Positions 2,067-23,093 of a stretch of DNA of 32,000 nt are shown piece after piece (the first letter of the stretch is position 1; each line of letters begins with the position of its first letter). The notes below the pieces were generated by a model, which was given only the letters and a program-made list of their open reading frames with translations, was not told the DNA's origin and did not search any database. This DNA comes from Candidatus Methanoperedens sp. (lineage in GTDB: Archaea > Halobacteriota > Methanosarcinia > Methanosarcinales > Methanoperedenaceae). Both the position numbers and the translations under genes were made by a program. Location of the stretch: positions 1 to 32,000 of the forward strand of contig JAPZAR010000012.1 in NCBI GenBank assembly GCA_027460535.1. The letters run 5' to 3'.

Positions 2067-3656
2067 TTATATAGTACCCCAGCTTTTAACGACGTCGATC
2101 AGCGCGAGTGGCTTCTCATATACCACATCCACTTTTCCATGGTCAAGATACACTAAGCCAGCATTTCCGTCCAGGGTGATTTCATCTCCTTCAGAAAGCT
2201 CCCGTCTGCCCAGCCGGCACTTATGATTGGGAACGTCAATATCAAGATCAGTGCAGTTCACAATACAGACCTTGCCCATCTGGCGGGCAACTACTGCAGC
2301 ATGTGAGGTTCTTGCCCCGCGGGCAGTGAGTATTCCTGCGCAGATGGCGATTCCCGGAATGTCGTCAGGGGTGACCATATCCCTGACCAGGATAACAGGC
2401 CCGTCAGCAGAGAACCTTTCCGCCACCTCGCCTGTGAATGCGATTCGACCAGAGACTACACCGCTGGACGCGGATATTCCCGCAGCAAGGGGAGAATCAT
2501 GAGAGATTACCTTCTGGATGCTGATAGATTCGATATCCACTTCTCGAAGCCTCTCCCGCGCTTCCTGCGGCGAGATGATTCCTTCCTGGCACAGCTCTAT
2601 GGCAATTCTAAGAGCCGCAAGCTGCGACCTCTTTCCGTCGCGGCTCTGGAGGATATAGAGCTTCCCCTCCTGCACCGTGAACTCTATATCCTGCATATCT
2701 TTAAAATGGGATTCGATCTTCCTGCCAACAGCAAGGAGTTCCTGATCTAACTGGGGCATGGTTTCCAGCAGCTCTCTCTGTGTGACGGTTGATCGTGCAC
2801 CGGATACCACATCCTCTCCCTGGGCTCCGAACTTGAAGTCGAGCAGGAGTTCGTTCTCCCCTGTCCAGGGGTTCCTCGTGAAGGCAACGCCTGCCCCGGA
2901 ACGCGGACCTATGTTCCCATAGACCATGGCCTGCACCGTGACAGCGGTCCCGCGGACATTATTCACCAGGTTCATCTTGCGGAATGCCTGCGCCCTGGGG
3001 TTCATCCAGGACCGAAGGACTTCGACCACAGCAAGCTCCAATTGTTCATGAACGTCCTCCGGGATCTTGTGGCCTCCCTCCAGAAATATCCTTTCATATT
3101 CCCCTGCAAGGCGCTTAAGACTGCTGGATTCCAGCTCCACTTCATCCAGTGCACCCTCTTTTTTCATGGCATCCTTTAAGAGCGATCTGTATTGCCCGGC
3201 GTCATGCGAGAACACTACTTCACCGAAGTTTTCCATCAGTCTCCTGTAGCAATCCCAGGAAAAGCGGGGGTTTCCTGTCAGGGATATCATTCTCCGAAGT
3301 GTTTCCCTGTTGAGACCCACGTTCAGCAATGTATCCATAACTCCGGGCATCGTGACCGGGGCACCGGATCTCACCGATACAAGAAGCGGTTTACGTCCGC
3401 CGAATATCAGTCCTGTGGCTCTCTCAATGAATGCGATTCCCTGACGCAGGAGGTCAGGCACGTCTCCGGGGAGTCTCCCTCCATTCCGGTAGTATTCCTC
3501 GCAGATTGAAACGTTCAAAGAGAAGCCGGGTGGAACTGGAATCCCAAGTTCTGCTATTCTCGCCAGATAAGCTGCCTTATTTCCGAAATCCTCAGATGTT
3601 ATCTCGCCCTGGCGGCCATGCCCGAACGTAACCATTCTTGGAACATCGCTTGGCAT
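2067..3656 (-). CDS. Pyruvate,phosphate dikinase homologue with only the ATP-grasp nucleotide-binding and phosphohistidine swivel domains; no PEP/pyruvate-binding TIM barrel
   Basis: PPDK signatures run along the whole length: LLVSVRSGAPVTMPGVMDTLLNVGLN, GNPRFSWDCYRRL, GAGVAFTRNPWTGE, AQGEDVVSG, DMQDIEFTVQEGKLYILQSRDGKR, and catalytic-His motif TARGARTSHAAVVARQMG. It is 529 aa versus about 870-880 aa for canonical PPDK. The ATG lies 5 nt after the upstream gene's stop. Confidence 0.8.
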   Translation of the reverse strand: MPSDVPRMVTFGHGRQGEITSEDFGNKAAYLARIAELGIPVPPGFSLNVSICEEYYRNGGRLPGDVPDLLRQGIAFIERATGLIFGGRKPLLVSVRSGAPVTMPGVMDTLLNVGLNRETLRRMISLTGNPRFSWDCYRRLMENFGEVVFSHDAGQYRSLLKDAMKKEGALDEVELESSSLKRLAGEYERIFLEGGHKIPEDVHEQLELAVVEVLRSWMNPRAQAFRKMNLVNNVRGTAVTVQAMVYGNIGPRSGAGVAFTRNPWTGENELLLDFKFGAQGEDVVSGARSTVTQRELLETMPQLDQELLAVGRKIESHFKDMQDIEFTVQEGKLYILQSRDGKRSQLAALRIAIELCQEGIISPQEARERLREVDIESISIQKVISHDSPLAAGISASSGVVSGRIAFTGEVAERFSADGPVILVRDMVTPDDIPGIAICAGILTARGARTSHAAVVARQMGKVCIVNCTDLDIDVPNHKCRLGRRELSEGDEITLDGNAGLVYLDHGKVDVVYEKPLALIDVVKSWGTI

Positions 3657-3661
3657 AAAAC

Positions 3662-5569
3662 CTATCTCCCTATGCTTTCGAGAATGTTTTCATGCATGAT
3701 GCCTGCAGCATTCGTGAGAGAACTTATAGATGTCATGATACTGCGGGTAAGCTCAAAGCAAACCAATAACCCCTTATCGTCCTCACTTTCCCTGAGGATC
3801 CCTTGCACAGTTTTCCGCAGCGCCTCATCACACTCCATTTCCAGGCCCATCACACTGTCCGAAGCCCTGAGGAAGTCCGCCATCTCATCACGGTTGTAAC
3901 CTTTATGAACTTCCCGGGCAGATATGAGGGCTTTTAAGAATTCCTGACTGCACCTCTGCGCTATCTCGGCCATTGTGCGCAGATCAGCATGGACTTCCCT
4001 TGATCCTGCATCCGGGAGAATGAGTGTGGCAAAGAACGACACCTCTTCGAGATGGTCAAGCGCATCGTCAGACGCGTTAATCAGCGCGGCAAAGAACGAT
4101 GCATCTTCAATCCTCCTGGAAAGGGCTCGAACCTTCTTCACGAGTTCATCTGCCTGACCTTCCCAGACCCGGACCTTCTGCGCACTGCGGGCTGCGACGT
4201 CCCCATCACGATGGAGAAGGGAATCGCTCACCGCGGTTGCTGCTTCGATTATGAGTGATGCATGCTCCTCGCACAATCCCATGAGATCATCATATGCGGA
4301 TCCGAGCTGTCCTAAGAGCTCAGCCTTTATTTCATTATGAATGAGAGATCGGGAATTGCCGGCCAAAAGATCGGTCGCTGCCGTCTGGAGCACCCACTGA
4401 AAATATTCCATGCACTTCTCACGGCCCAATCTTTGATGAAGTGGTTCTCCGCAGGGCACAGACAGTAAAAGGGCGTCATAGATGATCCTTTCCCCGCCCA
4501 GGTTGAAGAAAGCGATATGTCCAACCTCATTGTCTGCCGCCCATTTAAGAACTGTGATGCAGTCTTTATTGGGGAGGAAGTTCCCAAGCCGCTTACGTGC
4601 CCTGTTCCAGTCGATCAGGAACACTAGCCTTGATCCAAGGTGGGTAAAGAAGGCCCCAAGATCTGTCAGGTCCCTGGCCGTATATCTCCCTGTCAAGAGA
4701 TTATATGTCTCCTTTTCGAACTGATCACCGACGCGCTTTGATAGGGTATCCTCCCACTTCACATCCCATGCGTCGAAAAGGCTCTGGAAGAATTTTAGCC
4801 TGGGCACATGAATATCTGTGTGCACGATGGAGGCAGTCATTCCTTCGATGTTCACCACCAGCACATGCGCATCGGTCAAGCCTATATCGTTCTGAATGAC
4901 GAGCCTTGAGCCCATGCGCGTGGCGGTTGTCCCCAGGCCGGCGTGATCAAATTTGAGAGGTGCTGTGCGGTTAACCCCCGCCATGAACGCCCTGACCAGT
5001 ACCCTGTCGTTCTCCTCCAGCAGGTAGGTCATGGCCCCGTTGATATTCTCCTGCGAGAGCTCTCCCTGCATGGAATTCAGTACCCTGTGCATGTCCATCA
5101 CGAGGAGGTGGAGGCTGTCCCCGCTTTTTCGGTCGCCCGAAGTTATCTTCTGGAGAAACTGCTCGCTCAGGGCTTCTTCTCCGCCATCTGGCCAGCCCTC
5201 CAGTAGCTCTGTGAATCGTTTATCAAAATCGTGCGCCTCCCCACGTGCCAGAATGGGAAGAGACATCTCCTGCATGCATGCTTTTATAGCTGAGAGTATC
5301 TCTCCTGCATAGGGAATTCGATATGTCCCGGAACCAAGTCCTTCTGCCTCCTGCACTACACTATCAAGTAGCGCATTCTCAACCCTGGCAGTTTCCCTCT
5401 CTATTTTAAGACTGGGGAATTCACGGTCCGGATGCAGAGCACTGGACTGGGCTGTCTGGAGCAGCGTGAAATAGTACTTAATCCTGTCATTGGCCACAAG
5501 CGCCGCGTTCACTAGCTCAGGCAGGAGGAACTCTTCTTCGCCCATCTCTTTCAGGATATTCTTCTTCAT
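3662..5569 (-). CDS. 635-aa protein: unrecognised ~430-aa N-terminal region plus C-terminal PhoU_div/DUF47-like helical bundle
   Basis: The ORF track extends to 5680, but ATG 5569 (MKKNILKEMGEEE) forms an ATGA start/stop overlap with the upstream gene. The C-terminal ~200 aa align by eye with the window's own DUF47 protein (21111-21740): EGQADELVKKV/EHQGDDFVHEI, FAALINASDDALDHLEEVS/ISALASAFDDVLDYIDGTA, GLEMECDEALRKTVQGIL/RLENIADDIYKTSVAQLF. Confidence 0.6.
   Translation of the reverse strand: MKKNILKEMGEEEFLLPELVNAALVANDRIKYYFTLLQTAQSSALHPDREFPSLKIERETARVENALLDSVVQEAEGLGSGTYRIPYAGEILSAIKACMQEMSLPILARGEAHDFDKRFTELLEGWPDGGEEALSEQFLQKITSGDRKSGDSLHLLVMDMHRVLNSMQGELSQENINGAMTYLLEENDRVLVRAFMAGVNRTAPLKFDHAGLGTTATRMGSRLVIQNDIGLTDAHVLVVNIEGMTASIVHTDIHVPRLKFFQSLFDAWDVKWEDTLSKRVGDQFEKETYNLLTGRYTARDLTDLGAFFTHLGSRLVFLIDWNRARKRLGNFLPNKDCITVLKWAADNEVGHIAFFNLGGERIIYDALLLSVPCGEPLHQRLGREKCMEYFQWVLQTAATDLLAGNSRSLIHNEIKAELLGQLGSAYDDLMGLCEEHASLIIEAATAVSDSLLHRDGDVAARSAQKVRVWEGQADELVKKVRALSRRIEDASFFAALINASDDALDHLEEVSFFATLILPDAGSREVHADLRTMAEIAQRCSQEFLKALISAREVHKGYNRDEMADFLRASDSVMGLEMECDEALRKTVQGILRESEDDKGLLVCFELTRSIMTSISSLTNAAGIMHENILESIGR
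5373..5447. repeat. Copy A of a ~75-bp duplicated segment (inside the 5' part of the 635-aa gene)
   Basis: GCATTCTCAACCCTGGCAGTTTCCCTCTCTATTTTAAGACTGGGGAATTCACGG... matches 11134-11207 in the same orientation. By hand alignment 53 of the first 56 positions are identical, followed by weaker similarity with a 1-nt indel. Confidence 0.85.
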
Positions 5570-7080
5570 GGTACAAGGTCTAATGAAATTGCGAGGTCCC
5601 GATTGAATACCTTCTCGAACAGATCTCCTTTTTTCATGGCTCTGTCCTTCTCGGTTTCTGCTTCCCCTGAAATAGCACAATTGACAATCACCTGCTCGGG
5701 GGAAACCTCAGATGTGATATCTTTAACAAGGCTCTGCTGCGTGAAATCCAGTCCGTCCGCCACGCGAAGAATCGCTGACAGCGCCTTTACTTTCTGCCGC
5801 TCGTCCCGTCGCAGAGCAGCAAAGTACCGGTGCCCTTTATTTGGAAGTTCTCTCCTGTGGTAACGGGCGATTGAACCTACGATATTTCGTTCCCTTTCGT
5901 CAAAGGGAAGGTGCGGCTCGGCAAGGATGATGCGGAGTGAGGTCTTGTGATGCCCCTTCTGCCCTTCGATCCACCCGATATCATGAAGTATGCCGGCACA
6001 CTGGAGCCAGAAGCGTTCCTCGGCACCGAGGCCGTGAAGCTCTCCGAGTTCATCGAAGAGCCGCATAGCCAGCCTTGTCACCTGACTACTGTGCCCCTCA
6101 TTATAGGAAACGCTGCGAGCTGTCTTCCGAACTTCCTCCAGGCGGTTTTCATTCTTCTTTGATAGTTCCTGAGCCACCGCATCTGGTGATAGCCCCTGAA
6201 GAGTCATCTGGGCGAAAACCTCAGGAAGGCCGTTTTCCCGTATGGCTGCTGCGGCTTTCTCCACGTCATAGTCGACACGGTAGTGTTTCACTTCAAAGGG
6301 GTTTATCCACAGGATCGCGTAGCTGGCTCGAGGATCACCATCATCCTGCCTTCCTGCGCCCCCGGGGTTAATAAACCATACACCATCAACCTGACGGGAA
6401 AAGGGACGGTGCGAATGCCCGAAGATTATCACGTCAGCATCAGCGAGAAGAGCAAACTCACGAAGTTTTTCATCCGGCGTTTCAGGGCCTATTTCGGGCA
6501 AAGGGCTCCTGTGGGTAAGAAGTATTCGCTTTCCTCCAGCCTCCAGTCTGAGTTCCTCAGGCAGAGATTTGAGGTATTTGCGGTTCTTCTTAGAAAGATT
6601 GTTATATGTCCACTTGATGGCATTCCAGTCTTCAGGCGACTCTTTTTTCTCTCCCTCCTCTTCCTCTTTCTTTTCCTTGACCTTCAGAACCTTGAGGTCA
6701 TAGTTCCCAACCACGCTCTGGGCGTTCTCCTTGCGCAGTCTCCTGACAACATCATCCGGAAAAGCACCGTACCCCGTTAGGTCACCCACATTCCATATCT
6801 CTGAAACCTCTCTGTTGCTGGCATCTTCCAGGACAGACTTCAGGGCAGGCAGGTTGGCATGAACGTCCCCAATGAGTAGAAAGGCTTCGTGTTCTGCGGG
6901 TTGGGATAACTCCAGAGCAGGCAGGTTTGCAGTTTCTTTTTCTGCCTCAGCTTTCTTTATTTTTGTTTCTGCTTTAGCAAGTTTAGGTTTTGTCGTACTT
7001 CGCAGTATTTTAGGTCTCTCTTCCCACCACGAAGATACTTTGGTGTTCTTGCTTTTTTTCTTATCTTTCATATATTTCAC
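5566..7080 (-). CDS. Fusion protein: Lys-rich N-terminal tail, calcineurin-like metallophosphoesterase (YfcE/MJ0936-like) and PPX/GppA-type C-terminal HD module
   Basis: MPP motifs GDVHAN, VGDLTGYG, GNYD, LLTHRSP, GHSHRP, INPGGAG. The C-terminal ~190 aa parallel the C-terminus of the Ppx in this window: LHDIGW/LHDIGG, IARYHRRELPNKGH/VARFHRKKLPKRKD, ILRVADGLD/LLRLAEKLD. Confidence 0.75.
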   Translation of the reverse strand: MKYMKDKKKSKNTKVSSWWEERPKILRSTTKPKLAKAETKIKKAEAEKETANLPALELSQPAEHEAFLLIGDVHANLPALKSVLEDASNREVSEIWNVGDLTGYGAFPDDVVRRLRKENAQSVVGNYDLKVLKVKEKKEEEEGEKKESPEDWNAIKWTYNNLSKKNRKYLKSLPEELRLEAGGKRILLTHRSPLPEIGPETPDEKLREFALLADADVIIFGHSHRPFSRQVDGVWFINPGGAGRQDDGDPRASYAILWINPFEVKHYRVDYDVEKAAAAIRENGLPEVFAQMTLQGLSPDAVAQELSKKNENRLEEVRKTARSVSYNEGHSSQVTRLAMRLFDELGELHGLGAEERFWLQCAGILHDIGWIEGQKGHHKTSLRIILAEPHLPFDERERNIVGSIARYHRRELPNKGHRYFAALRRDERQKVKALSAILRVADGLDFTQQSLVKDITSEVSPEQVIVNCAISGEAETEKDRAMKKGDLFEKVFNRDLAISLDLVP

Positions 7081-7089
7081 ACTCCATAC

Positions 7090-8088
7090 TTATTTTACTT
7101 TTGCCTGATTCTTAGATTTTTCATCGAATGTTAACTGGATAAATTGCTTCGTGTCATTCCATATATTCTGCTCCTGAATATCTTTCCAGTATGCTACAAA
7201 CTCCTCGTATATCGCAGAACGGCGCTCGCGCAGATGCTGCTGGAAGTGCAGCAGTCCGGGCTCAAGAATCCCAAAGGAGTCGTCCTGCCCGAAATAATCA
7301 AGAGAATATGCCCGTTCATCATCCATGAATTGAGGCAAATATTCCATCCATACATCGCAGTCGTGCAGATCTCCGAGCATATCCTGGAGTTTTTTGCAGA
7401 CCAGAAGCTGGTTCTCCAGTTCCTCCTCGTAAAGGGGTGAAAACACCTCCATCGTGTAGCGAAGGCGCTTTACAGCAATACGCATGGCATGGTGCTCTTT
7501 TATATTTTCAGGGATGTAAACTGAGGCTTCATGAGCGAATATCTCATCAAGCCGCGTTGTTATGTGGACAATCGCTTTTTGATAAATCTTTGGAGAATTG
7601 ACTTCAGCTCTACCCTTGCGCATCTTACGGCACAACTTTTCCATATCCTCCGCCACGCCACTCTCATGAAGCCTGTCAATGGCCTCGATCACACGCGGTT
7701 GCGTCCGCTCCCTGCGCTGCCTGAGGCGCAGGAGGAAGCGCTGCGCACCAGGGCGGAGGCTTTCCTCTTTTAGCTTCTCGGTGTATGCCTTAAGGAAAGC
7801 TATCTGCACATCTGCATCCCGTGCCTCCCTAAGAGCGCGAGTGATATTGCGGATCTCTTTTCGCCAGTCCCTGTACTTCTTAGGAGGGAAACACTCTTCA
7901 AAAAGTGGAAGGCAGGAGCGGATCCGCCTTGATGCGACTCGCATCCTGTGAATGAACTCAATGTCCTTCGCCTCACGCACGCCTTCTATCTCCCTGGAAA
8001 GGGACCGAAGAAGCGGGCGAAGTCTATCCGCTCCGAAAAGGCAATATCCAGTGAAGTTTTTCAGAGATCCTTTCCTCTTAGAAATCAC
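7090..8088 (-). CDS. CHAD domain-containing protein
   Basis: Helical protein with CHAD signatures FIHRMRVASRRIRSCLPLF and HHAMRIAVKRLRYTMEVF. The GTG start at 8088 overlaps the ppk1 stop by 11 nt. Confidence 0.8.
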   Translation of the reverse strand: MISKRKGSLKNFTGYCLFGADRLRPLLRSLSREIEGVREAKDIEFIHRMRVASRRIRSCLPLFEECFPPKKYRDWRKEIRNITRALREARDADVQIAFLKAYTEKLKEESLRPGAQRFLLRLRQRRERTQPRVIEAIDRLHESGVAEDMEKLCRKMRKGRAEVNSPKIYQKAIVHITTRLDEIFAHEASVYIPENIKEHHAMRIAVKRLRYTMEVFSPLYEEELENQLLVCKKLQDMLGDLHDCDVWMEYLPQFMDDERAYSLDYFGQDDSFGILEPGLLHFQQHLRERRSAIYEEFVAYWKDIQEQNIWNDTKQFIQLTFDEKSKNQAKVK

Positions 8089-10321
8089 CGTGCCACAACC
8101 CCCTGTTCCCGATCAGCCACTCCTGCGAATTCATCTCTTTCTCTCCGGGAGAAAGTGTAACGCGCTCGTACGTACTATCGCTCAATAACCGCCTTGCTTT
8201 TACATTGTCCTTCAGGTGGACATTGAGTATATCCTTGATTATCACAGATTTTATATCCGGATCCTCCACAGGGAAGAGCGTTTCCACCCGGTCGTCAAAG
8301 TTCCGTGTCCTGAGGTCCGCACTTCCGAGCAGGACCTCTTCATCCCCGCCGTTTCTGAAATAGTATATTCGTGCGTGTTCGAGAAAACGTCCTACAATGG
8401 ATGTTACAGTGATATTCTCACTTACCCCCGGAATTCCGGGGCGAAGGGCGCACAGGGCGCGCACGTTCAGGTCGATTTTTACACCTGCTTGAGACGCCCT
8501 GTAAAGAGCCAGGATTATCTCCATGTCAGTTATGCCATTGTTCTTGAATGCCATATATCCGTCCCCGTGCTCTCTATGGCGTGTGATCTCTCTTTCGATG
8601 CGTCCCAGGAATTCCCGTCGCAAATCATAAGGCGCAACAAGGAGTTTGTGATACTTCTGCTTTCCATAATAACCTGTGAGTGCGTTGAAGAGGTGGGACA
8701 TATCTGCACAGATCTGCGGGTTGCAGGTAAAGTAGCCAAGGTCGCCATAGATCCTGGCTGTGACGGAATTGAAGTTCCCCGAACTAAGGTAACCGTATCG
8801 GATTATTTCCTTTCCTTCTCTCCTGACAACAAGGCATAATTTGGCATGAACCTTCAGTCCCGGTCTCCCGTATACCACATGCACACCCGCCCGCTCAAGT
8901 GCATGCCCCCACCCAATATTTTTTTCTTCATCGAAGCGCGCTGTCAGTTCCACAACAACAGCCACCTGCTTACCATTCTGCCGCGCCTTAATAAGTGCAT
9001 CAATGACGGGGGAATTGGCATCGATCCGGTAAAGCGTTATTTTTATAGCCAGCACATCAGGATCCTGTGCAGCCTGATGTAAGAATTTGATAAAGGGCAA
9101 AAAACTGTCATAAGGATAGTAGAACAGGACATCACGGTTGCGCATAGCCGGGAAAATTCTTTTTTCGTTATCTAAGAATGAAGGATTTGAAGGAAGAAAC
9201 TGTTTATCCTTCAGATCGGGGCGGTCCAGTCTCATCAATTCCCATAAATCTGCAGTCCCCATGATACCCTCTATATCACTGACCAGGTAGGAAGGCAGTG
9301 CAAGTTTATTGGCAAGCATGTGACGGATGTCGTCGGGCATGGATACATCCACTTCAAGCCTCACTGGCGGCCCGGTACGGCGAAACTCCATACTTTCCTC
9401 AACCTGGGTCGCAAGGTCATACTCCCCATTCAGATGAGCCTTAATTTCAGAATCGCGCGTGATGCGGAAAGGATACGATGCAACCACTTCCATGCCCGGG
9501 AAGAGCATGTCCAGATTTGCGGCAATGAGATCTTCAAGCAGGACGAAGTGGGTGTTTTTCCAGCTGGCAGCGCTGTGTTCGGTATTCTTACCGTTTTCCA
9601 CTTCCGGCACACCGATAAAGCGCGGGAATAAACAGGTGGGTACCTTGACGCGTGCAAACATTTGTTTTTCAAAGTTACCTTGAGTTACCCTGACCACAAC
9701 AGCAATATTGATCGTGAGATTGGAAATGAATGGAAAAGGATGAGCCGCATCGAATGCCAGAGGGGTTAGGGTCGGAAATATTTCATATTCGAAGAAGCGT
9801 CGCAGAAGAACCTTCTGTTCTTCCTCAAGGTCGCTATATCTGTCGATATGGATACCTTCGCTGTGGAGCTTTGGTAAGAGTTCATACCAGCCGCGTGCAT
9901 GATCAGCAATAAGTGGAATTAACTCTTTTTGAATCGCTTCCAGTTGTTCTGACGGTGACATCCTGTCAGGGCGTGCTTTGACCGTCCCTGTGGCACGCCG
10001 CAGGGATGAAACCCGAACCATGAAGAACTCATCGATGTTGCTTCCACAAATAGCCAGAAACTTCACTCTTTCCAGGACTGGCTGGCGCTCATCCATTGCT
10101 TCCTCAAGCACCCGCTGATTGAATTTGAGCCAGCTAAGCTCACTATTGATGAAGTTTCCGGGATCATCAAGAGAAACGCTTTCCGTACTGATTTTCAATG
10201 GCTTTTCAATAACACTCTCCTCGGAATTTATATCCATCTGTTGTTTTTCCATAATACAGGCATCCTGTTGATCAGTAGTAAATTTTCGACATCCCAATCC
10301 CGAAACTCCCTTTCTCATCAT
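8078..10321 (-). CDS. ppk1: Polyphosphate kinase 1
   Basis: Full-length PPK1 similarity: FINSELSWLKFNQRVLEEA, VKFLAICGSNIDEFFMVRV, TPLAFDAAHPFPFISNL, the phospho-His region GLKVHAKLCLVVRRE, and C-terminal PLD-like domains. The true start may be the internal MEKQQMD, 23 codons downstream. Confidence 0.9.
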   Translation of the reverse strand: MMRKGVSGLGCRKFTTDQQDACIMEKQQMDINSEESVIEKPLKISTESVSLDDPGNFINSELSWLKFNQRVLEEAMDERQPVLERVKFLAICGSNIDEFFMVRVSSLRRATGTVKARPDRMSPSEQLEAIQKELIPLIADHARGWYELLPKLHSEGIHIDRYSDLEEEQKVLLRRFFEYEIFPTLTPLAFDAAHPFPFISNLTINIAVVVRVTQGNFEKQMFARVKVPTCLFPRFIGVPEVENGKNTEHSAASWKNTHFVLLEDLIAANLDMLFPGMEVVASYPFRITRDSEIKAHLNGEYDLATQVEESMEFRRTGPPVRLEVDVSMPDDIRHMLANKLALPSYLVSDIEGIMGTADLWELMRLDRPDLKDKQFLPSNPSFLDNEKRIFPAMRNRDVLFYYPYDSFLPFIKFLHQAAQDPDVLAIKITLYRIDANSPVIDALIKARQNGKQVAVVVELTARFDEEKNIGWGHALERAGVHVVYGRPGLKVHAKLCLVVRREGKEIIRYGYLSSGNFNSVTARIYGDLGYFTCNPQICADMSHLFNALTGYYGKQKYHKLLVAPYDLRREFLGRIEREITRHREHGDGYMAFKNNGITDMEIILALYRASQAGVKIDLNVRALCALRPGIPGVSENITVTSIVGRFLEHARIYYFRNGGDEEVLLGSADLRTRNFDDRVETLFPVEDPDIKSVIIKDILNVHLKDNVKARRLLSDSTYERVTLSPGEKEMNSQEWLIGNRGLWHGDF

Positions 10322-10400: not shown

Positions 10401-10898
10401 TCAAGCGCATGCATCCACGGTATTTACTGCGCTCTGTGTCTCGGATTCATACTCTTCTCTTACAAACCCTTTTGAGACTTCAAACAAATCAGAAAGCCAT
10501 TTCTTACCATTATCATGGAAAATGATGGGAAGCTTCGCTTCCAGCGGTTTAAGCCTGTTTAAGAACTGCCCAACGGTCTCGGATTCGATCAGAATCTGGC
10601 AGAAGGGGTGCTCTGGATACGATATGCTGATCGCCTTAAGATAGACTAAAGGATCGCCGCCGTTCTCAATGAACTTACACATCATCTTAATGGGTGTGAA
10701 TTCAACATTGGTCGCTTCTTTGCCATTATCTGCAACACCTTCCACCATTCTGATAAAGTTATCCCAGCCGTTGCCATTCTCCCATTTTTTAAACCTCTCT
10801 TCAATGAGTAAAATGTCTCTTCTGTGAATCTTCTGAATGAGCTGGAGATCTTTCCTGTAAATCTCTTCTTTGAATAGCTCGATATTATCTAATTTCAT
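10401..10898 (-). CDS. Hypothetical protein (165 aa), no recognisable domain
   Basis: Clean ATG-initiated ORF, AT-rich. It ends 79 bp upstream of ppk1 on the same strand, and a copy of the TATAGATT-N12-TATATA module lies upstream of it. Confidence 0.5.
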   Translation of the reverse strand: MKLDNIELFKEEIYRKDLQLIQKIHRRDILLIEERFKKWENGNGWDNFIRMVEGVADNGKEATNVEFTPIKMMCKFIENGGDPLVYLKAISISYPEHPFCQILIESETVGQFLNRLKPLEAKLPIIFHDNGKKWLSDLFEVSKGFVREEYESETQSAVNTVDACA

Positions 10899-11120: not shown

Positions 11121-12770
11121 TTATGCATGCAGTGCATTCTCAACCCCGGCAGTTTCCCTCCCTATTTTAAGACTGGAGAATTCACGGTTCCAATGAGAGC
11201 CCTGGATTACATTCAAATTGAGCTTCCTCCTGAATATTTTTTCGAATGCTTTCACATTCGACTCTACACCCCACACTTCAAGCTCGCAGCCGCCATCAGG
11301 CCATATAGCGAGATCGACTTTTGTTCTATCTTTCCCGGTGAATTCTGCCTTTTTTACGAGGCAGGTATGGCTTCTGTCGAGTTTCTCAGCAAGGCGCAGC
11401 AGCATGGATAGGATAATCACGGTATTCGCAGAGTGCTCATCGAGCAGAGCTAAAGCCTGGTCCTTTCTCTTTGGAAGCTTCTTCCTGTGGAACCTGGCAA
11501 CGTTTGCCATTATATTTATCTCGATCTGGTCAAAGCCGGGGAGCTCTGTGTTGCCTATTATGTAATGCGAGTGGAGATGATGACTTTTAAATGCTATGAA
11601 GCCGCCGATATCGTGCAGGAACGAAGAGTACTTCAATAGCTCCCTCTCCCGTTCATCCATGTCGTGCAGCCCGATCCTCCTAGAACTGTCAAAAAGCGAA
11701 AGTGCAAGAGATATGACAGCGTTGGCGTGCCGCTCGTTGATATTGCATGATCTTCCAAGCTGGAGCACGCTCATCTCCCTGACAGACATCTCCTGGAACT
11801 GCGGAAACCCTTCATGTTTTGACAGGTAATCCATGAGCATTCCGTGGACTATGCCCCTGTCGCTGATTGTAATCTCTTCAAGCCCGAACTCCTCCATTAT
11901 TGTCTCGAGGATAGCAGCGCCCCCAACGATTATGTCCGCTCTCTCGGGGTTGATTCCCTGGATCTTCTTTCTCTCATCGAGGGCAAGCGCGCAGAGTGTC
12001 GAAACTACCTTCCTTAGATTCTTGTAGTTCAGGACAAGGTTTCTTCCTGCGCCGTCCCGTTCATGCAGATTCATCGCTATCTCGGCCAGGTTAACGATAG
12101 TGCCTGAACTTCCGAAAGCGCACTCTATCCTCGCACTCTTCATGAATTGAGCTGTTTTGAGAATTCTGTTCTTGATGTACAGCTTCATCCTTGCATAAAC
12201 ATCCTGTGGCACAGGTGCTGTCCCCCCATCCTGAATGAACCTAGTAGTGAGCCTTATTGCCCCTAGTTCGAAGCTGTCGACGTAATATTGCTGGAACTGA
12301 TCGCCTATCGCAAGCTCCGTGCTCCCTCCCCCTATATCGATGAAGATTGCCTTCCTCTTGCCAATATGGACTCCGCTCGAGACCCCAAGATAGATGAGAC
12401 GTGCCTCTTCCTTTCCAGGTATGACCCTGACTTCCAGCTTCGCCTCATCTTTTAGCTGTTCAAGGAATTCTACCTGGTTTTTCGCCTCCCGTGCCGCAGA
12501 AGTGGCTATAGCGATAATCTCTCCAGCGCCGAAGGATTTTGCGAGTTCCGCGAACTTTTTGCAAACCAGAACCGCTCGCTCCATTGCCTCTGGCTGGAGG
12601 TGATTGCTCTTGAACTCGTTCTCGCCGAGCCTGACAACCTCCTTCTCCTGCCGCAGCACAGTATACGAATGATTGGGGTTGAGTCTGACGAGTATAAGTC
12701 GGATAGAGTTTGTCCCAATATCTATGAACGCCAGTATCTTTTCCTCAAGTTGATCAAGGTGCATTCTCAT
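11121..12770 (-). CDS. ppx: Exopolyphosphatase / guanosine pentaphosphate phosphohydrolase family (Ppx/GppA) with C-terminal HD domain
   Basis: ASKHA N-terminus AFIDIGTNSIRLILV, FIDIGGGSTEL, then HD module FLHDIGGFIAFKSHHLHS and VARFHRKK. The ORF is open to 12905, but the first 45 codons are AT-rich and low-complexity, so ATG 12770 or 12764 is preferred. The last ~25 codons come from a duplicated DNA segment (see repeat features). Confidence 0.85.
   Translation of the reverse strand: MRMHLDQLEEKILAFIDIGTNSIRLILVRLNPNHSYTVLRQEKEVVRLGENEFKSNHLQPEAMERAVLVCKKFAELAKSFGAGEIIAIATSAAREAKNQVEFLEQLKDEAKLEVRVIPGKEEARLIYLGVSSGVHIGKRKAIFIDIGGGSTELAIGDQFQQYYVDSFELGAIRLTTRFIQDGGTAPVPQDVYARMKLYIKNRILKTAQFMKSARIECAFGSSGTIVNLAEIAMNLHERDGAGRNLVLNYKNLRKVVSTLCALALDERKKIQGINPERADIIVGGAAILETIMEEFGLEEITISDRGIVHGMLMDYLSKHEGFPQFQEMSVREMSVLQLGRSCNINERHANAVISLALSLFDSSRRIGLHDMDERERELLKYSSFLHDIGGFIAFKSHHLHSHYIIGNTELPGFDQIEINIMANVARFHRKKLPKRKDQALALLDEHSANTVIILSMLLRLAEKLDRSHTCLVKKAEFTGKDRTKVDLAIWPDGGCELEVWGVESNVKAFEKIFRRKLNLNVIQGSHWNREFSSLKIGRETAGVENALHA
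11134..11207. repeat. Copy B of the ~75-bp duplicated segment (3' end of ppx, up to 13 bp from its stop codon at 11121-11123)
   Basis: GCATTCTCAACCCCGGCAGTTTCCCTCCCTATTTTAAGACTGGAGAATTCACGG... On the minus strand it encodes HWNREFSSLKIGRETAGVENAL, versus HPDREFPSLKIERETARVENAL in the 635-aa protein. Confidence 0.85.
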
Positions 12771-12951
12771 ATAATTATAATCATGATTAGGTTCTATTAT
12801 ATCATGTTTTCTACCGTTGCCATTTCCATCCCCTTCAATACGGTCTGGGCAAGGACTCAACTTGCTAAAATTAAAGCCCCCACAAAATGTTTTCATAGCG
12901 TTCATTCAAGTGTTAATTAAATCTTAGTCAGAGGTTTTTAAATAACTTATG

Positions 12952-13601: not shown

Positions 13602-14495
13602 ATGGAAAATATCGAACAGAAGAATCATATTGGCAAAGCAGATATTCACGTACACACCAGGTATTCAGGGTTCGGACAATGTTCTTTTATTCATTTCCCT
13701 GAATCTGTTACCGAGCCAGTTAAAGCCGTCGAGGCTGCCCGCAGGAAAGAACTTGATGTCCTTTGCATAACAGACCACAACACAATCCGGGGTGCTATCA
13801 TCGCCCAAAAACATTCACGGGATATCGAGGTTGTAGTTGGAGAAGAGATTTCAAGCGCAGACGGAGAGATCCTGGCGCTGTTCATCCAGGAAGAGATCAA
13901 ACCCATGCGCAGCGCTCCTGAGACTATAGACCTTATACACGGCCAGGGAGGTATTGCTATAGCTGCACATCCTTTTAGCCCATATTGCCACTCTCTCGAA
14001 ACTAAAATACATAATTTAAAACTGGACGGAGTGGAAGTATTCAATGCATACCATCGTGATGCCTACTCTAATTTAATGGCCCAGACCTTCACTTCAGGAA
14101 GACTGGCAAAGCTGGGGAGCAGCGATGCCCATTCAATAAATATGATAGGCAACGGATACACAATTTTTGAGGGAAAAACCTCAGAGGAACTTAGGAAATC
14201 CATCATAAACAGAAAAACCTCCTTTGGCGGAACAAGAACGCCTCTGTCAGAATGCATTTCGTGGAGCAAAGAAATAGCCTCGGAGAGCATTAAAATGATT
14301 TATGATTCCCTGACAGGAGAGAAAAGCCAGGACATATTATACTTGGAAATAGATAAAACTACAAGAAGGACCAAAGCCCTGGGATTGATTGGCGCTGCAC
14401 TGTATATCGGGCTACCATTATCGTATTTTTTCGGTGTCTCGGGGGAAATTATCTTGAATTTAAAGGGTAAAAGAAAATGGAATGAGAACATATAG
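13602..14495 (+). CDS. PHP-domain metal-dependent phosphoesterase with C-terminal transmembrane anchor
   Basis: PHP motifs ADIHVHTRYS, CITDHNTIRGA, GEEISSADGEILALF, IAAHPFSP, GVEVFNAY, GSSDAHS. C-terminal hydrophobic helix ALGLIGAALYIGLPLSYFFGV. Confidence 0.8.
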   Translation: MENIEQKNHIGKADIHVHTRYSGFGQCSFIHFPESVTEPVKAVEAARRKELDVLCITDHNTIRGAIIAQKHSRDIEVVVGEEISSADGEILALFIQEEIKPMRSAPETIDLIHGQGGIAIAAHPFSPYCHSLETKIHNLKLDGVEVFNAYHRDAYSNLMAQTFTSGRLAKLGSSDAHSINMIGNGYTIFEGKTSEELRKSIINRKTSFGGTRTPLSECISWSKEIASESIKMIYDSLTGEKSQDILYLEIDKTTRRTKALGLIGAALYIGLPLSYFFGVSGEIILNLKGKRKWNENI

Positions 14496-16620: not shown

Positions 16621-17724
16621 ATGAATCGATTAAAGATAATACTAATTTTGATTCTGGCAGGCGTGCTGGTAGCTGGGTGTGTAAGCACGCCGCCTGCCCA
16701 AGTACAGCCTACAGTACAAACAACGGCGCAGCCTCCGGCAACTATAACCTTAAATGGTGCGGGTGCAACATTTCCATACCCTCTGATATCCAAATGGAGT
16801 TCGGAACATAGCAAAATAAATCCAAATATCCAGATCAATTATCAGAGCGTGGGAAGCGGTGCGGGAATACAGCAGATAACTGCAAAAACGGTAGATTTTG
16901 GCGCAAGTGATGCGCCTCTCTCAGAGCAGGTATATAAAAATCTTACAGGCATCCTGCAAATACCCGAAACCATAGGTGCAGTGGTCGTAGCGTATAACCT
17001 GCCCGGCATACAGAAGGGAGTGAATTTGAGCGGCGATGTAATTGCTGACATTTTCCTTGGAAAAATCACAAAATGGAACGACCCGAGGATAGTCTCACTT
17101 AATCCTGATATTCAATTCCCGCCAAAAGACATTATCGTAGCACACAGGAGCGATGGAAGCGGCACGACTTTCGTATTCACGGATTATCTTTCAGCGGTAA
17201 GCCCTGACTGGAAATCACAGGTTGGAAAAGGTACATCAGTCAACTGGCCTGTCGGTCTTGGCGGGAAAGGCAACGAGGGCGTTGCAGGTATCTTGAGCCA
17301 GAACCCTTACGCTATAGGGTATGTCGAACTTATCTATGCCAAGGCTCAGAACAACATCTCCTATTCATATATCAAGAACAAGGCAGGGATATTCATTGAA
17401 CCCACACTTGAGACAACGGCAAGCGCCGTTGCTGGAGCTGTGCCAACGCTGCCCGCAGGCGACGCAAGCTGGTCATCCGTAAGTGTTGTGAATGCCCCGG
17501 GAGACAATTCATACCCCATAAGCAGCTTTACCTATCTTCTTGTCTACAAAAACCAGGCAGAACTGACCAAGGGTAAAGCACTGGCTGAATTCCTCTGGTG
17601 GGCAGTACACGATGGACAGAGTTATTCCTCCGATCTCCAGTATGTGACGCTGCCAAAAGAAGTCGTAAGTCTGAATGAAAAAACCATAAAACTTATGAAC
17701 TACAACGGACAACCGCTAATCTAG
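16621..17724 (+). CDS. pstS: Phosphate ABC transporter substrate-binding lipoprotein
   Basis: Signal peptide with lipobox LVAGC, then PstS pattern GAGATFPYPL, YQSVGSGAGI, DFGASDAPL, HRSDGSGTT. Confidence 0.9.
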   Translation: MNRLKIILILILAGVLVAGCVSTPPAQVQPTVQTTAQPPATITLNGAGATFPYPLISKWSSEHSKINPNIQINYQSVGSGAGIQQITAKTVDFGASDAPLSEQVYKNLTGILQIPETIGAVVVAYNLPGIQKGVNLSGDVIADIFLGKITKWNDPRIVSLNPDIQFPPKDIIVAHRSDGSGTTFVFTDYLSAVSPDWKSQVGKGTSVNWPVGLGGKGNEGVAGILSQNPYAIGYVELIYAKAQNNISYSYIKNKAGIFIEPTLETTASAVAGAVPTLPAGDASWSSVSVVNAPGDNSYPISSFTYLLVYKNQAELTKGKALAEFLWWAVHDGQSYSSDLQYVTLPKEVVSLNEKTIKLMNYNGQPLI

Positions 17725-18729
17725 ATGGATAGATCGAGATTGCCTTCTTTCCGTATCAGCCGGAGCAAACTCTCAGGCGATTTTATTTTTGAAGCTGTAG
17801 TCGGCTCATTTGCTCTGGGAATAATAATCCTTGCAATTTTATTGTTCAGGGAACTTTTTATAGAGTCTCAACTTTCAAGAGATGCTTTTGGCACGGGTTT
17901 TTTGACAGGTTCTGTATGGGATCCAGTGAAAGAGGTATTCGGCGCCCTGCCTTTTATCTTCGGGACTCTTGTTTCATCATTCCTTGCCCTGCTCATAGCT
18001 GTCCCATTTAGCCTCGGGATAGCGATATTTCTCTCAGAACTCGCTCCGGAAAAGCTGAGGACGCCCCTATCTTTCATCATAGAATTGCTTGCCGCCGTCC
18101 CAAGCGTCATTATCGGGCTCTGGGGCATATTCATTCTCGCCCCGTTCATCCACGACTATCTTGCGCCGCCTCTTTCAACATATCTTGGTTTTCTGCCGCT
18201 CTTCCAGGGACCAATGTACGGTCCGTCCATGCTTACCGGTGGCATGATACTTGCAATAATGATTATCCCGATAACCTCATCGGTGTCTAAGGAAGTCCTC
18301 ATGACAGTGCCGACGCAACAGCGGGAAGCAGCCATCGCTCTCGGCGCTACAGGCTGGGAGACCACACGGATTGCGGTACTCCCCTATGCCAGATCTGGAA
18401 TATTCGGGGCGGTAATTCTTGGATTTGGACGTGCTATCGGCGAAACAATGGCAGTAACCATGGTCATCGGGAACAGCCACCACATCAAGGCATCCCTTTT
18501 CGCGCCATCAGATACCATGGCATCGGTTATTGCAAACGAGTTAATGGAGGCACCGTCCAAGCTTTACGTCTCATCTCTTATTGAGATCGGGTTTTTGCTT
18601 CTGGTGATATCCGTCATAATCAACATAGCAGCCAGGATTTTGGTGTGGAAGTTTGATGAATCCAATGATATCCACCTTTTTAGACGGATTCGTCAAATGC
18701 TTAATGTGGAAGGAGGCGAGAGGGCATGA
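17725..18729 (+). CDS. pstC: Phosphate ABC transporter permease PstC
   Basis: Polytopic permease with the EAA-type loop REAAIALGATGWETTRIAVLPYARSGI. The ATG directly follows the pstS stop. Confidence 0.9.
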   Translation: MDRSRLPSFRISRSKLSGDFIFEAVVGSFALGIIILAILLFRELFIESQLSRDAFGTGFLTGSVWDPVKEVFGALPFIFGTLVSSFLALLIAVPFSLGIAIFLSELAPEKLRTPLSFIIELLAAVPSVIIGLWGIFILAPFIHDYLAPPLSTYLGFLPLFQGPMYGPSMLTGGMILAIMIIPITSSVSKEVLMTVPTQQREAAIALGATGWETTRIAVLPYARSGIFGAVILGFGRAIGETMAVTMVIGNSHHIKASLFAPSDTMASVIANELMEAPSKLYVSSLIEIGFLLLVISVIINIAARILVWKFDESNDIHLFRRIRQMLNVEGGERA

Positions 18730-19562
18730 AATGGAATAAAAGAAAATTAATTGACCGAACTATGTCCTTCCTGACCGCCGCCTGCGTTGCTATCGCCATA
18801 ATCCCACTGCTGAGCATCCTCTACACAGTAACCATCAATGGGATATCATCTATAAACCCGGATTTTCTTACACAGCTCCCCAAACCTGTGGGTGAAGCAG
18901 GAGGCGGGCTTGGGAACGCTATCCAGGGGACATTTATAGTCGTAGGGATTGCCTGCTTAATCGGGCTTCCCATAGGCATTCTTTCAGGGATATATCTTTC
19001 AGAATATGGGGCAAACAGGTTTGGACGTTTTGTAAGTTTCGTGGCTGATGTCCTCACCGGCACGCCCTCGATAGCTGCAGGGATGTTCGGTTATACCTTC
19101 ATAGTCCTTTATTTTGGAAGCTTCTCTGCAATTGCAGGCGGGGTAGCTCTCTCTGTATTGATGATCCCCATTGTTACGAGAACTACCGAGGAGTCCCTCA
19201 AACTTGTGCCTGGATCAATTAAAGAAGCTTCCCTTGCCCTTGGGATACCGCGGTGGAAAACAACATTATATATTGTTTTGAGCACTGCCAGGAGCGGTAT
19301 AATCACTGGAGCATTACTGGCAATCGCAAGAATATCTGGTGAGACCGCGCCTCTCCTTTTCACTTCATTTGGGAACATGTTCTGGGCTAGCGGAATAGAC
19401 AAACCAATATCGACACTGCCGGTGCAGATTTACACATATGCAATAACACCCTTCCCTGACTGGCATGCCAAAGCCTGGGGAGGAGCCCTCATTCTGATCA
19501 TTCTGATTCTTATTTTAAATATTGGTGTGAGGTTCATTATCAGAAGAAGATATTCAGTGTAA
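18726..19562 (+). CDS. pstA: Phosphate ABC transporter permease PstA
   Basis: Permease with [34 protein letters not shown] overlap with pstC. Confidence 0.9.
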
Positions 19563-19578
19563 GAATAGGAGTATAAAA

Positions 19579-20337
19579 GTGCAGAATAAGATTACCGTTG
19601 AAGCCCTCAATGCATGGTTCGGAACAAAGCATGTTCTAAAAGATATTGATCTTGGTTTCCAGGAAAACAGGATAACCGCCATCATAGGCCCTTCCGGATG
19701 CGGAAAATCCACATTTATCCGATGCCTCAACCGGATGCATGAAGTTGTACCCAGGGCAAAAGTCTCAGGAAAAGTACTGGTTGATGGCAAGGATATCTAT
19801 GAAAGCGATGTCGACCCTGTAGACATAAGAAGGCGCATAGGTATGGTATTCCAGAAGCCCAACCCTTTCCCTACGATGTCTATTAGTGATAATGTTGTGG
19901 CTGGATTGAAGCTCAGTGGAGTGAAAGATAAAAAGATCCTTGATAACATTGCCGAGGAGAGTCTAAAAAAAGCCGCACTATGGGACGAAGTGAAGAATGA
20001 CCTCAATAAATCGGGTGTGAGTCTGTCAGGCGGTCAGCAGCAGCGTCTCTGCATCGCAAGAGCATTAGCTGTTGAGCCAGAGGTTATCCTGTTTGACGAA
20101 CCCTGCTCAGCTTTAGACCCTATATCCACAAGCAAGATTGAAGATTTAATGATGGAACTGAAAGAAAAATATACCCTTATTATAGTAACGCATAATATGC
20201 AGCAGGCAGCAAGGGTAAGCGATTTTACAGCTTTCTTTCTTTATGGAGAGTTAATAGAGTTTGGAGAAACAAATCAGATATTTAAGAAGCCACAGGAAAA
20301 GAGTACCGAGGATTACATAGTCGGGAGGTTTGGATAA
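19579..20337 (+). CDS. pstB: Phosphate ABC transporter ATP-binding protein PstB
   Basis: Walker [10 protein letters not shown], signature [14 protein letters not shown], Walker [13 protein letters not shown]-loop VTHNM. GTG start. Confidence 0.95.
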
Positions 20338-20338
20338 T

Positions 20339-20992
20339 ATGGTTCGCGAAGCGTATCACAGAGATCTTCATAAGTTAAGGGAGGAAGTAGTCAGCATGGG
20401 AAGCCTTGTAGGCAAGGCGATAGGAGATTCGGTTCTATCCCTCAAGAATCGGGATGTGGGAATGGCCCAGAAGGTCATTGATATGGATATTGAGATTGAT
20501 GCCCTCGATCAGAGCATTGAGGAGGGCTGCATGCGACTGCTCGCACTCCAGCAGCCTATGGCGAGGGATTTGAGACTTATAATCTCGGTATTAAAGATGT
20601 CCATTGACCTTGAAAGGATGGGTGACCTTGCTTTAGAGATAGCGGTTATTACAAAGATTACAGCTAATGTGCCGCCAGTGAAGCCGCTCATAGACATACC
20701 GAGAATGGCAGAGACATGCCAGCAAATGTTGGCGAATACCATGACCGCTTTTGAAAATAAGGATGTGGAGCTTGCAAAGACTATTGCAAAGCGGGATGAT
20801 GAAGTCGATATGCTCTTTGACCAGGTAAGAAGAGAGCTGATTTCCTATATGATCGAGGACCCAAAAAAGATAACCGGCGCCCAGCACCTAACCTTTGTGG
20901 CAAGGTATCTTGAGAGGATAGGTGACCACATAACGAATCTCTGTGAAAACGTGGTGTTCATGGTGACAGGCGAACGGGCGGAGTTGAATTGA
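20339..20992 (+). CDS. phoU: Phosphate signalling complex protein PhoU
   Basis: Two PhoU repeats (IDALDQSIEEGCMRLLALQQPMARDLR; DEVDMLFDQVRRELISYM; ARYLERIGDHITNL). The track ORF starts at TTG 20330, but ATG 20339, just after the pstB stop, is preferred. Confidence 0.9.
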   Translation: MVREAYHRDLHKLREEVVSMGSLVGKAIGDSVLSLKNRDVGMAQKVIDMDIEIDALDQSIEEGCMRLLALQQPMARDLRLIISVLKMSIDLERMGDLALEIAVITKITANVPPVKPLIDIPRMAETCQQMLANTMTAFENKDVELAKTIAKRDDEVDMLFDQVRRELISYMIEDPKKITGAQHLTFVARYLERIGDHITNLCENVVFMVTGERAELN

Positions 20993-21740: not shown

Positions 21741-21788
21741 GAGGCGATCGTTCTGGAAATTTTCGTCATCTTTACTATTATCATTGCC

Positions 21789-22799: not shown

Positions 22800-23093
22800 A
22801 TGTTGAAGGACAAAACCAAGCTTGTCATATGGCCAGTTTATCTCGACGCCACCAAATCAAGGGCTGAAGGCAGGATCCTTTCCATGAAGGATTCGGTGAA
22901 ATCACCCGTTTTGAAGGAGATAGAGAAAGCAGCCGTTGAGTTGAACCTTACTCCCATAGTGGAACCTGAAAAAGCTCATCCCAAATCATGGTGGGCCACA
23001 AGCGGCAGGGTGCTTGTAGATAAGAAAGGTCCGAAATCCATACTAGCAAAGCAGATAGCACAGAAAATAAATAAAAGCCGGGGACAAAAATGA
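22800..23093 (+). CDS. srp19: Signal recognition particle protein SRP19
   Basis: LVIWPVYLDATKSRAEGRILS is the SRP19 signature. 97 aa. Confidence 0.85.
   Translation: MLKDKTKLVIWPVYLDATKSRAEGRILSMKDSVKSPVLKEIEKAAVELNLTPIVEPEKAHPKSWWATSGRVLVDKKGPKSILAKQIAQKINKSRGQK

Follow-up and report, generated by a model that had tools for sequence, protein, structure and literature searches.

A conserved gene pair joins an uncharacterised protein with a PhoU/DUF47-type bundle to a truncated pyruvate, orthophosphate dikinase: a candidate split phosphohistidine relay in archaea and bacteria

Introduction

What is the role of a 635-residue protein that carries a PhoU-like helical bundle at its C-terminus, resembles no recognisable family over its N-terminal two thirds, and is encoded in the middle of an archaeal phosphate island? 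The question is raised by a gene on contig JAPZAR010000012.1 of Candidatus Methanoperedens sp. (GenBank assembly GCA_027460535.1), of which we analysed positions 1 to 32,000, a stretch of 32,000 nucleotides referred to here as the window. An earlier note, made from the sequence of the window alone, described the gene product (hereafter the target) as an orphan and proposed that it supplies a regulatory or sensing input dedicated to the neighbouring polyphosphate (polyP) operon. Our analysis partly supports that interpretation: as judged from sequence comparison and structure prediction, the proposed architecture of an unassigned domain of about 400 residues followed by a DUF47/PhoU bundle holds.

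The answer that we propose is a different one. With a probability that we put at roughly one half, the target is the dedicated partner (acceptor or output) subunit of a truncated pyruvate, orthophosphate dikinase (PPDK) encoded directly downstream of it, the two proteins together forming a split-dikinase phosphohistidine relay.

Results

The target and a truncated PPDK are inseparable

The genes and residue at the centre of this proposal are as follows.

3662 to 5569, minus strand: the target gene, coding for the 635-residue protein (stop codon at 3662-3664), delimited by its translation and its homologues; family members have about 635-650 residues
2067 to 3656, minus strand: the partner gene, coding for a truncated PPDK of 529 residues, directly downstream of the target
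2301 to 2303, minus strand: the catalytic His452 of the partner, in RTSHAAVVAR

We judge the target open reading frame (ORF) to be real. Its ATG overlaps the stop codon of the upstream gene (ATGA at 5566-5569), its start is backed by homologues sharing MxxKKxIIxELGEE as their first residues, and a spacer of only 5 nucleotides separates its stop codon from the ATG of the partner gene. The two genes appear translationally coupled.

Our neighbourhood survey covered 80 loci, the best-scoring subset of the at least 571 species genomes that carry the family, and their ORFs were searched with the proteins of the window. A truncated PPDK gene lies downstream of the target homologue on the same strand at 76 of the 76 loci that offer at least 300 nucleotides of room, the other four loci stopping at a contig edge. 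The projected gaps between the two genes run from -10 to +145 nucleotides, with a median of about 11. The association is also seen from the opposite direction, as three of three partner homologues, chosen regardless of the target, have a gene for a 645-648-residue protein without a Pfam match directly upstream; the one such protein that was compared is 51% identical to the target. Furthermore, some bacteria encode natural fusions of the two proteins (1,200-1,205 residues), in the order target region with PhoU_div, PPDK_N, PEP-utilizers, with independent examples on several contigs, among them NCBI MGO8905770.1 and an 833-kb Solirubrobacteraceae contig. Identity to the window proteins tracks between target and partner across 70 loci (r = 0.96), a correlation that shared phylogeny alone could also produce; this apparent co-divergence agrees with inheritance as a unit. 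The PPDK-like gene, which the earlier note had treated as an ordinary member of the operon, is therefore an obligate partner, the two genes staying together inseparably in archaea and bacteria alike.

On a single metagenomic contig (L084), a gene for a 164-residue protein of the histidine-phosphatase superfamily (His_Phos_1; 7799-8293) lies directly downstream of the pair. This neighbour could be relevant to a phosphohistidine relay.

The partner retains two of the three domains of PPDK

The Pfam content of the partner is limited to PF01326 (PPDK_N, ATP-grasp; E-value (E) 2.8e-40) and PF00391 (mobile phosphohistidine domain; E 1.3e-21), and the protein aligns to residues 4-509 of solved 875-residue PPDKs (E 3e-116). 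By Pfam, the phosphoenolpyruvate (PEP)/pyruvate TIM barrel (PEP-utilizers_C) is absent from the partner, whose chain ends about 20 residues after the mobile domain. The target likewise has no PEP-utilizers_C by Pfam, and its predicted secondary structure contains no beta-alpha barrel. The pair therefore has the ATP-grasp and mobile histidine domains of a PPDK and is not a PPDK, because the third defining domain is missing. Inspection by eye locates SVRSGA, MPGVMDT, DIEFTVQ and LQSRDGKR in the partner, which we take to be the ATP-grasp motifs known from PPDK, and the catalytic histidine is invariant in 64 of 64 partners, within the motif RT[SA]HAAVVAR.

The partner scores far nearer to PPDK than to PEP synthase. 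Against NF004531, the NCBIfam model for truncated PPDKs (534 positions), it reaches 401 bits with a cut-off of 456, and it scores better against the full-length PPDK model TIGR01828; given these two results, an independent truncation of the partner is possible. The short form is general. All but one of the surveyed partner ORFs end within about 40 residues of the end of the window partner, most of them within 20, and the best 120 partner homologues (P0283-P0402) all have 501-553 residues and contain PF01326 and PF00391 only. The public names of these homologues include "pyruvate, orthophosphate dikinase", "phosphoenolpyruvate synthase" and "PEP/pyruvate-binding domain-containing protein". Since all 120 listed homologues are without the PEP/pyruvate domain, the naming of truncated partners is likely a systematic mis-annotation, and metabolic reconstructions of methanogens, of anaerobic methanotrophic (ANME-2d) archaea and of bacteria from enhanced biological phosphorus removal may credit these organisms with a gluconeogenic or pyrophosphate (PPi)-linked enzyme that the partner cannot supply.

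The one longer ORF (L013, 4298-7273) has 992 residues from stop to stop, with 455 extra residues that run into an amine-oxidase/NAD-binding domain. A full-length PPDK is ruled out here, as the extra residues are those of an amine oxidase; the extension may be read-through into an amine-oxidase gene, whether by a real fusion, a frameshift or an assembly artefact.

The C-terminal third is a PhoU/DUF47-type bundle

Four features of the C-terminal domain (C-domain) are needed here.

3665 to 4351, minus strand: PhoU/DUF47-type six-helix bundle, residues 407-635, from AlphaFold2 helices, Foldseek and PF01865 matches in relatives
4148 to 4162, minus strand: acidic motif E470xxxD474 (EGQAD)
4046 to 4069, minus strand: acidic motif D501xxxD505xxE508 (DDALDHLE)
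3815 to 3841, minus strand: acidic motif E577xxxD581, plus R585

The AlphaFold2 model of the whole protein, built on a 58-sequence alignment, has a mean predicted local distance difference test score (pLDDT) of 84.8 and a predicted template modelling score (pTM) of 0.58, and places six long helices at residues 407-634. A Foldseek search with this model returned DUF47/PhoU proteins as the best PDB matches of the C-domain. The closest is 3l39 (E 2.5e-4, template modelling (TM) score normalised to the target entry 0.81, root-mean-square deviation 2.7 Å over 209 columns, probability 1.00), followed by 2olt and 2iiu (TM-target about 0.8, probability 1.00) and by the PhoU entries 4q25, 1t72 and 1xwm (TM-target 0.6-0.76).

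Profile searches agree with the fold. PF01865 (DUF47/PhoU_div) is matched by 22 of 58 scanned target relatives, with a best E of 1.1e-7, and the distant relatives P0163 (34.7 bits), P0181 (27.0) and P0149 (26.4) exceed the curated gathering cut-off of 24.4 bits. The window protein itself gives no Pfam match at E <= 1, and so falls below detection by PF01865, and no NCBIfam match at E <= 0.1. Likewise, PF01895 (PhoU) has no match in the target at E <= 1, and the list of the 25 families matched most often by the 58 relatives does not contain it. Taken together, the PF01865 matches in relatives and the fold match are two independent lines that make the DUF47 relationship of the C-domain solid, and we assign the C-terminus, from sequence profiles and the predicted structure, as a PhoU/DUF47-type bundle.

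The earlier note had claimed that the C-terminus aligns helix by helix with the stand-alone DUF47 protein of the window. The fold match is in keeping with this (TM-target 0.81 to a DUF47 structure). In sequence, the similarity is marginal: BLASTP gives an E of 0.004 over 85 residues, spanning ExxGD and DDxLD, and when the family profile is aligned by hhalign with the window DUF47 sequence alone, 160 columns are in register at a non-significant E of 0.052. The corresponding comparison with the single window PhoU sequence is also not significant (E 0.23). In the BLASTP alignment the EGQAD and DDALD motifs of the target pair with EHQGD and DDVLD of the window DUF47, and the motif patterns quoted earlier, E-x-x-[AG]D-[ED] and D-D-x-L-D, are indeed present. 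All three acidic motifs are at least 90% conserved, and R585 at least 97%, among 165 family sequences reaching down to 27% identity, the set used for all conservation percentages of the target given here.

The likeness to characterised DUF47 structures (3L39, BT4638; 2OLT and 2IIU, SO_3770) thus extends to a six-helix fold of two three-helix repeats with acidic ExxxD/DxxxD motifs. DUF47 proteins stand alone, have about 205-215 residues and are typically encoded beside a PiT transporter. The target bundle differs in being the C-terminal third of a 635-residue protein that is coupled to a truncated PPDK; the stand-alone, PiT-linked setting belongs instead to another gene pair of the window (21111-22754). 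With PhoU (PF01895) the C-domain has in common a related helical-bundle fold and a phosphate-related context, unlike PhoU in that it has no PF01895 match and is not adjacent to pstB in the window.

The N-terminal domain holds the most conserved residues of the family

The N-terminal domain (N-domain) comprises the following features.

4355 to 5569, minus strand: alpha/beta domain, residues 1-405, holding the most conserved residues of the family
5087 to 5119, minus strand: helix motif DSLHLLVMDMH (D151, H154, D159, H161), from conservation
4916 to 4951, minus strand: loop FDHAGLGTTATR (H209, G211), from conservation
4799 to 4894, minus strand: beta-hairpin motifs QNDIGLTDAH (N227, D228, H235) and TDIHVPR (D252, H254, R257)
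4592 to 4612, minus strand: basic motif DWNRARK (D320, W321, N322, R325, K326), at least 97% conserved

Every search bore out that no family assignment is possible for the N-terminal two thirds. Neither Pfam nor NCBIfam matches the N-domain. When PDB was searched by sequence profile, for the whole family and for the N-domain separately, the one match was to HA2 at E 0.097, which was dismissed as chance. Foldseek searches of a separate AlphaFold2 model of the domain (pLDDT 80.7) against PDB and BFVD gave nothing at E <= 0.001, the best E being about 0.05 and the best PDB TM score 0.28. Fold matches to influenza PA, Arp2/3 p34, histidine-kinase CA/ChpT and YbjN/AmyR were set down to chance because of their low probability and PDB TM scores of 0.28 or less.

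The domain is strongly conserved. At least 97% conservation is found for R118, H209, G211, N227, H235, D252, H254, R257, W272, D320, W321, N322, R325, K326 and H351, and 90-97% for D151, H154, D159, H161, Q226 and D228. Within the FDHAGLGTTATR loop, G213, T214, T215 and T217 are invariant among archaeal sequences, and the loop is flexible in the N-domain model (pLDDT below 50 at residues 207-211). This near-invariant set of histidine, aspartate, arginine and lysine residues suggests a putative metal- or phosphate-handling site, either an active site or a phospho-acceptor site, and judged by this conservation the domain looks unlike a passive sensor scaffold.

The family is large and spans both prokaryotic domains

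Contrary to its first description the target is not an orphan, with 3,896 homologues at E <= 1e-3 as a lower bound. Relatives also make up 1,520 clusters at 50% identity, 455 of them at E <= 1e-30, and occur in at least 571 species genomes of both archaea and bacteria. The archaeal carriers include Methanoperedens, Methanomicrobiales, Methanosarcinales, Methanomassiliicoccales and Nitrososphaerales/Nitrosopumilales; the bacterial carriers include Burkholderiales, Thiobacillus, Rhodocyclaceae, Candidatus Accumulibacter, Geobacteraceae, Planctomycetota and Actinomycetota. The nearest relatives of the target are from Candidatus Methanoperedens. We found no published description of the family in the literature, including a survey of archaeal polyP (PMC6864096), and regard it as a large, uncharacterised family.

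Phosphate genes recur beside the pair in distant lineages

The target is the fourth gene of five in a closely packed minus-strand cluster (PPK1, CHAD, Metallophos-HD, target, PPDK-like). The other phosphate-related genes of the window, identified by Pfam, are listed here with the rest of the cluster.

8078 to 10321, minus strand: PPK1
7090 to 8088, minus strand: CHAD
5566 to 7080, minus strand: Metallophos plus Ppx-GppA domain III/HD, directly upstream of the target
11121 to 12905: PPX
1079 to 1891: PPK2
16621 to 20992: pstSCAB-phoU
20330 to 20992, plus strand: canonical PhoU, after pstSCAB (PF01895, 4.8e-49)
21111 to 21740, plus strand: stand-alone DUF47, before PiT (PF01865, 5.6e-23)
21789 to 22754, plus strand: PiT; the DUF47-PiT pair spans 21111-22754

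With PPX, PPK2, pstSCAB-phoU and DUF47-PiT besides the PPK1-CHAD cluster, the window is an archaeal phosphate island. The earlier observation that the locus holds three PhoU-like bundles was also right, PhoU and DUF47 being confirmed by Pfam and the target bundle by its predicted fold.

Across the 80 loci, we counted PPK1, CHAD, PPX, Metallophos-HD and PPK2 as polyP genes when they lay within about 8 kb. Such genes are near the target at 15 loci, and with Pst/PhoU/DUF47 genes the number is 18 overall; these are raw counts and not a measure of enrichment. The lineages with polyP genes by the pair are Methanoperedens, Methanoculleus, Methanoregula, Methanosarcinaceae, Geobacteraceae, Dongiaceae, Nitrososphaerales and Thiobacillus. 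In two loci from Methanosarcinaceae (L031, 6686-7615; L037, 6749-7633) the target homologue is immediately preceded, in the same orientation, by a PstS-like PBP_like_2 gene, and a CHAD protein is encoded about 4 kb downstream. In Candidatus Accumulibacter necessarius (L072, 700-11605) the pair directly follows a MASE1 histidine kinase and a LuxR-type response regulator and is divergent from a pstS-phoU-pstC-pstA-pstB operon, the PhoU of which is unusually long (363 residues). Given that polyP or Pst/PhoU genes recur beside the pair in such distant lineages, a link of the target to phosphate is likely.

It is a different matter whether the target serves the polyP operon. The order PPK1-CHAD-Metallophos/HD-target-PPDK is repeated in two other Methanoperedens loci (L004 and L029); the upstream genes of the cluster are missing from most other loci. 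This context is lineage-specific and does not belong to the constant core of the module. The pair of Methanolinea mesophila adjoins trp genes, and PiT has no match at any of the 80 loci (phmmer, E <= 1e-10). An input dedicated to the polyP operon is therefore not borne out, with polyP genes near 15 of 80 loci as against the truncated PPDK at 76 of 76. What the mapping of neighbourhoods across lineages supports is the wider phosphate connection, with the truncated PPDK, not the polyP operon, as the constant neighbour.

Some other recurrent neighbours were put aside. The third-largest cluster of neighbouring ORFs (14 loci) was discarded because its members are low-complexity antisense ORFs from high-GC genomes, and Pyr_redox_2, TPP-enzyme/LeuA and PEGA neighbours were treated as lineage-specific synteny.

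In Methanoculleus (L003, 15702-17657) the Metallophos domain is fused to CHAD instead, and a separate small HD-CE protein follows PPX. Different lineages thus combine the Metallophos, HD and CHAD modules in different ways, and this suggests an uncharacterised phosphoesterase associated with polyP.

Discussion

The proposed model may be set beside known systems. In the swivelling-histidine dikinases (PPDK, PEP synthase, rifampicin phosphotransferase, glucan water dikinase and phenylphosphate synthase), an ATP-grasp domain is combined with a mobile phosphohistidine domain, which carries phosphate to a separate acceptor module. This module varies from one member of the family to another and can be a separate polypeptide, as in the three-protein phenylphosphate synthase. 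By analogy, the pair described here would be a swivelling-histidine dikinase or kinase with a new acceptor or output module, and would differ from those enzymes in that the proposed module is a domain of unrecognised fold followed by a DUF47 bundle, with no PEP-utilizers_C TIM barrel.

In this model, the partner would autophosphorylate on His452 from ATP, and its greater closeness to PPDK than to PEP synthase leads us to infer that it probably uses inorganic phosphate (Pi) and releases PPi. The mobile histidine domain would then hand the phosphoryl group to the His/Asp/Arg/Lys site of the target N-domain, which would stand in for the missing third (pyruvate) domain, and from there the group would pass to an acceptor or be held as a signal. 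The DUF47-like bundle, through its acidic E/DxxxD motifs, may bind metal-phosphate, or it may dock and regulate the kinase. Given the repeated occurrence of polyP and Pst/PhoU genes beside the pair, the acceptor or effector would most likely be a phosphate species (Pi, PPi or polyP), the least secure step of the model; an example would be ATP + Pi + polyP(n) <-> AMP + PPi + polyP(n+1).

Several observations weigh against this proposal. No phosphate-related gene lies within about 8 kb at 62 of the 80 loci (about 77%). The target is acidic (pI 5.1; C-domain 4.8), unlike a basic CHAD-type polyP binder, and for this reason a CHAD-like basic polyP-binding surface on the target is disfavoured. In the natural fusions the target region is N-terminal to the ATP-grasp domain, whereas the substrate domain of PPDK is C-terminal, and with this difference in domain order the fusions do not demonstrate that one domain was simply swapped for another. 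No catalytic fold is recognisable in the N-domain, whose candidate active site is read from residue conservation, and the modelled geometry between the domains of the target is uncertain (pTM 0.58).

By analogy, the closest characterised counterpart of the pair would be VadK (Rv1127c) of Mycobacterium tuberculosis, a truncated PPDK (PMC13400623). Given ATP and Mg, VadK phosphorylates its own catalytic histidine, His422, and it acts as a regulatory histidine kinase that has protein partners (PMC13400623). Its operonic partner Rv1126c is bound so firmly that 2 M NaCl is needed to part the two, and VadK is more soluble when both are co-expressed; VadK has been connected with the methylcitrate cycle, and not with phosphate (PMC13400623). 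The window partner is like VadK in having the ATP-binding and catalytic-histidine domains only and in having an operonic partner, a likeness known here from the genes. The order of the genes differs: Rv1126c is encoded downstream of VadK, as inferred from M. tuberculosis locus numbering on the complementary strand, whereas the target is encoded upstream of its partner.

The example of VadK also raises the possibility, which we consider doubtful though deserving of attention, that the target is not catalytic at all and forms the end-point of a signalling relay, being phosphorylated on a conserved histidine or merely bound by a VadK-like kinase. Its bundle would then act, much as PhoU acts on PstB and PhoR, by modulating polyP enzymes, the transport of phosphate or other targets. 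The description of VadK as a regulatory histidine kinase with protein partners (PMC13400623) is in keeping with this, as are the PhoU/DUF47 fold of the C-terminus and the position of the Candidatus Accumulibacter pair beside a histidine kinase/response regulator pair and pstSCAB-phoU. Weak, non-significant Foldseek matches of the N-domain recur on HK853, YycG and ChpT (4fpp); these histidine-kinase-like matches are, however, at chance level (probability <= 0.2, TM <= 0.26). Moreover, more than 10 near-invariant polar residues spread over about 250 residues exceed the needs of a single phospho-acceptor site, and an obvious regulated neighbour is missing at most of the 80 loci.

A more ambitious version of the split-dikinase proposal, and one that we hold to be unlikely, is that the pair is a previously undescribed dikinase whose third module, made up of the N-domain and the DUF47 bundle, acts on inorganic phosphate species and not on pyruvate. 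Reactions such as AMP + PPi + polyP(n) <-> ATP + Pi + polyP(n-1), or AMP + 2 PPi <-> ATP + 2 Pi, would then be possible. If true, a new enzyme would connect the pools of ATP, PPi and polyP with one another in methanogens, in ammonia-oxidising and methanotrophic archaea, and in bacteria that accumulate polyphosphate, such as Candidatus Accumulibacter.

The reading of the earlier note, that of a PhoU-type sensor or regulator dedicated to the PPK1-CHAD-phosphoesterase operon, with Pi or metal sensed through the bundle of the target, now seems decidedly unlikely. It would account for the tight cluster in the window and in the other Methanoperedens loci, for the fold and its conserved acidic motifs, and for the setting in a phosphate island. 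Yet it is at odds with the scarcity of polyP genes at the surveyed loci, with the trp neighbours in Methanolinea mesophila and with a truncated PPDK as the invariant neighbour, and it leaves both the large conserved N-domain and the PPDK fusions unexplained.

It is highly improbable that the target is no more than a chaperone or anti-kinase of the truncated PPDK, stabilising, localising or inhibiting it without any phosphotransfer between the two, since the solubility gain of VadK with Rv1126c, the strict pairing and the apparent translational coupling that would fit such a role are set against a near-invariant His/Asp/Arg/Lys set and acidic E/DxxxD motifs that are unusual for a purely structural partner, and against a size, 635 residues, that is large for a chaperone or inhibitor.

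The split-dikinase proposal concerns a two-gene module that is present in at least 571 species genomes of both prokaryotic domains without a described function, and half of which has neither a Pfam model nor a recognisable fold. The family would carry the idea of truncated PPDKs as phosphohistidine kinases, as developed for VadK, far beyond actinobacteria, and would supply a defined, co-evolving partner with which truncated PPDKs can be studied. Energy metabolism based on polyphosphate and PPi would gain a new reaction through this module, should the acceptor prove to be a phosphate species.

Further features of the window

Several other genes of the window may be recorded here.

10401 to 10898, minus strand: an ORF of 165 residues without a Pfam match, just 5' of PPK1
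13602 to 14495, plus strand: PHP-domain protein (PHP_C), between PPX and the pst operon
23090 to 23734, plus strand: PHP-domain protein (PHP), after PiT
24065 to 25096: TFIIB gene
25341 to 26285, minus strand: a protein of 314 residues with a release-factor domain match

The ORF beside PPK1 is kept at the same site in two Methanoperedens-type loci (L004 and L029; E about 1e-85), and the phosphate island includes two PHP-domain proteins. The 314-residue protein matches acVLRF1, the VLRF1 release-factor domain of Actinobacteria/Chloroflexi (E 2.8e-15), in an otherwise archaeal window.

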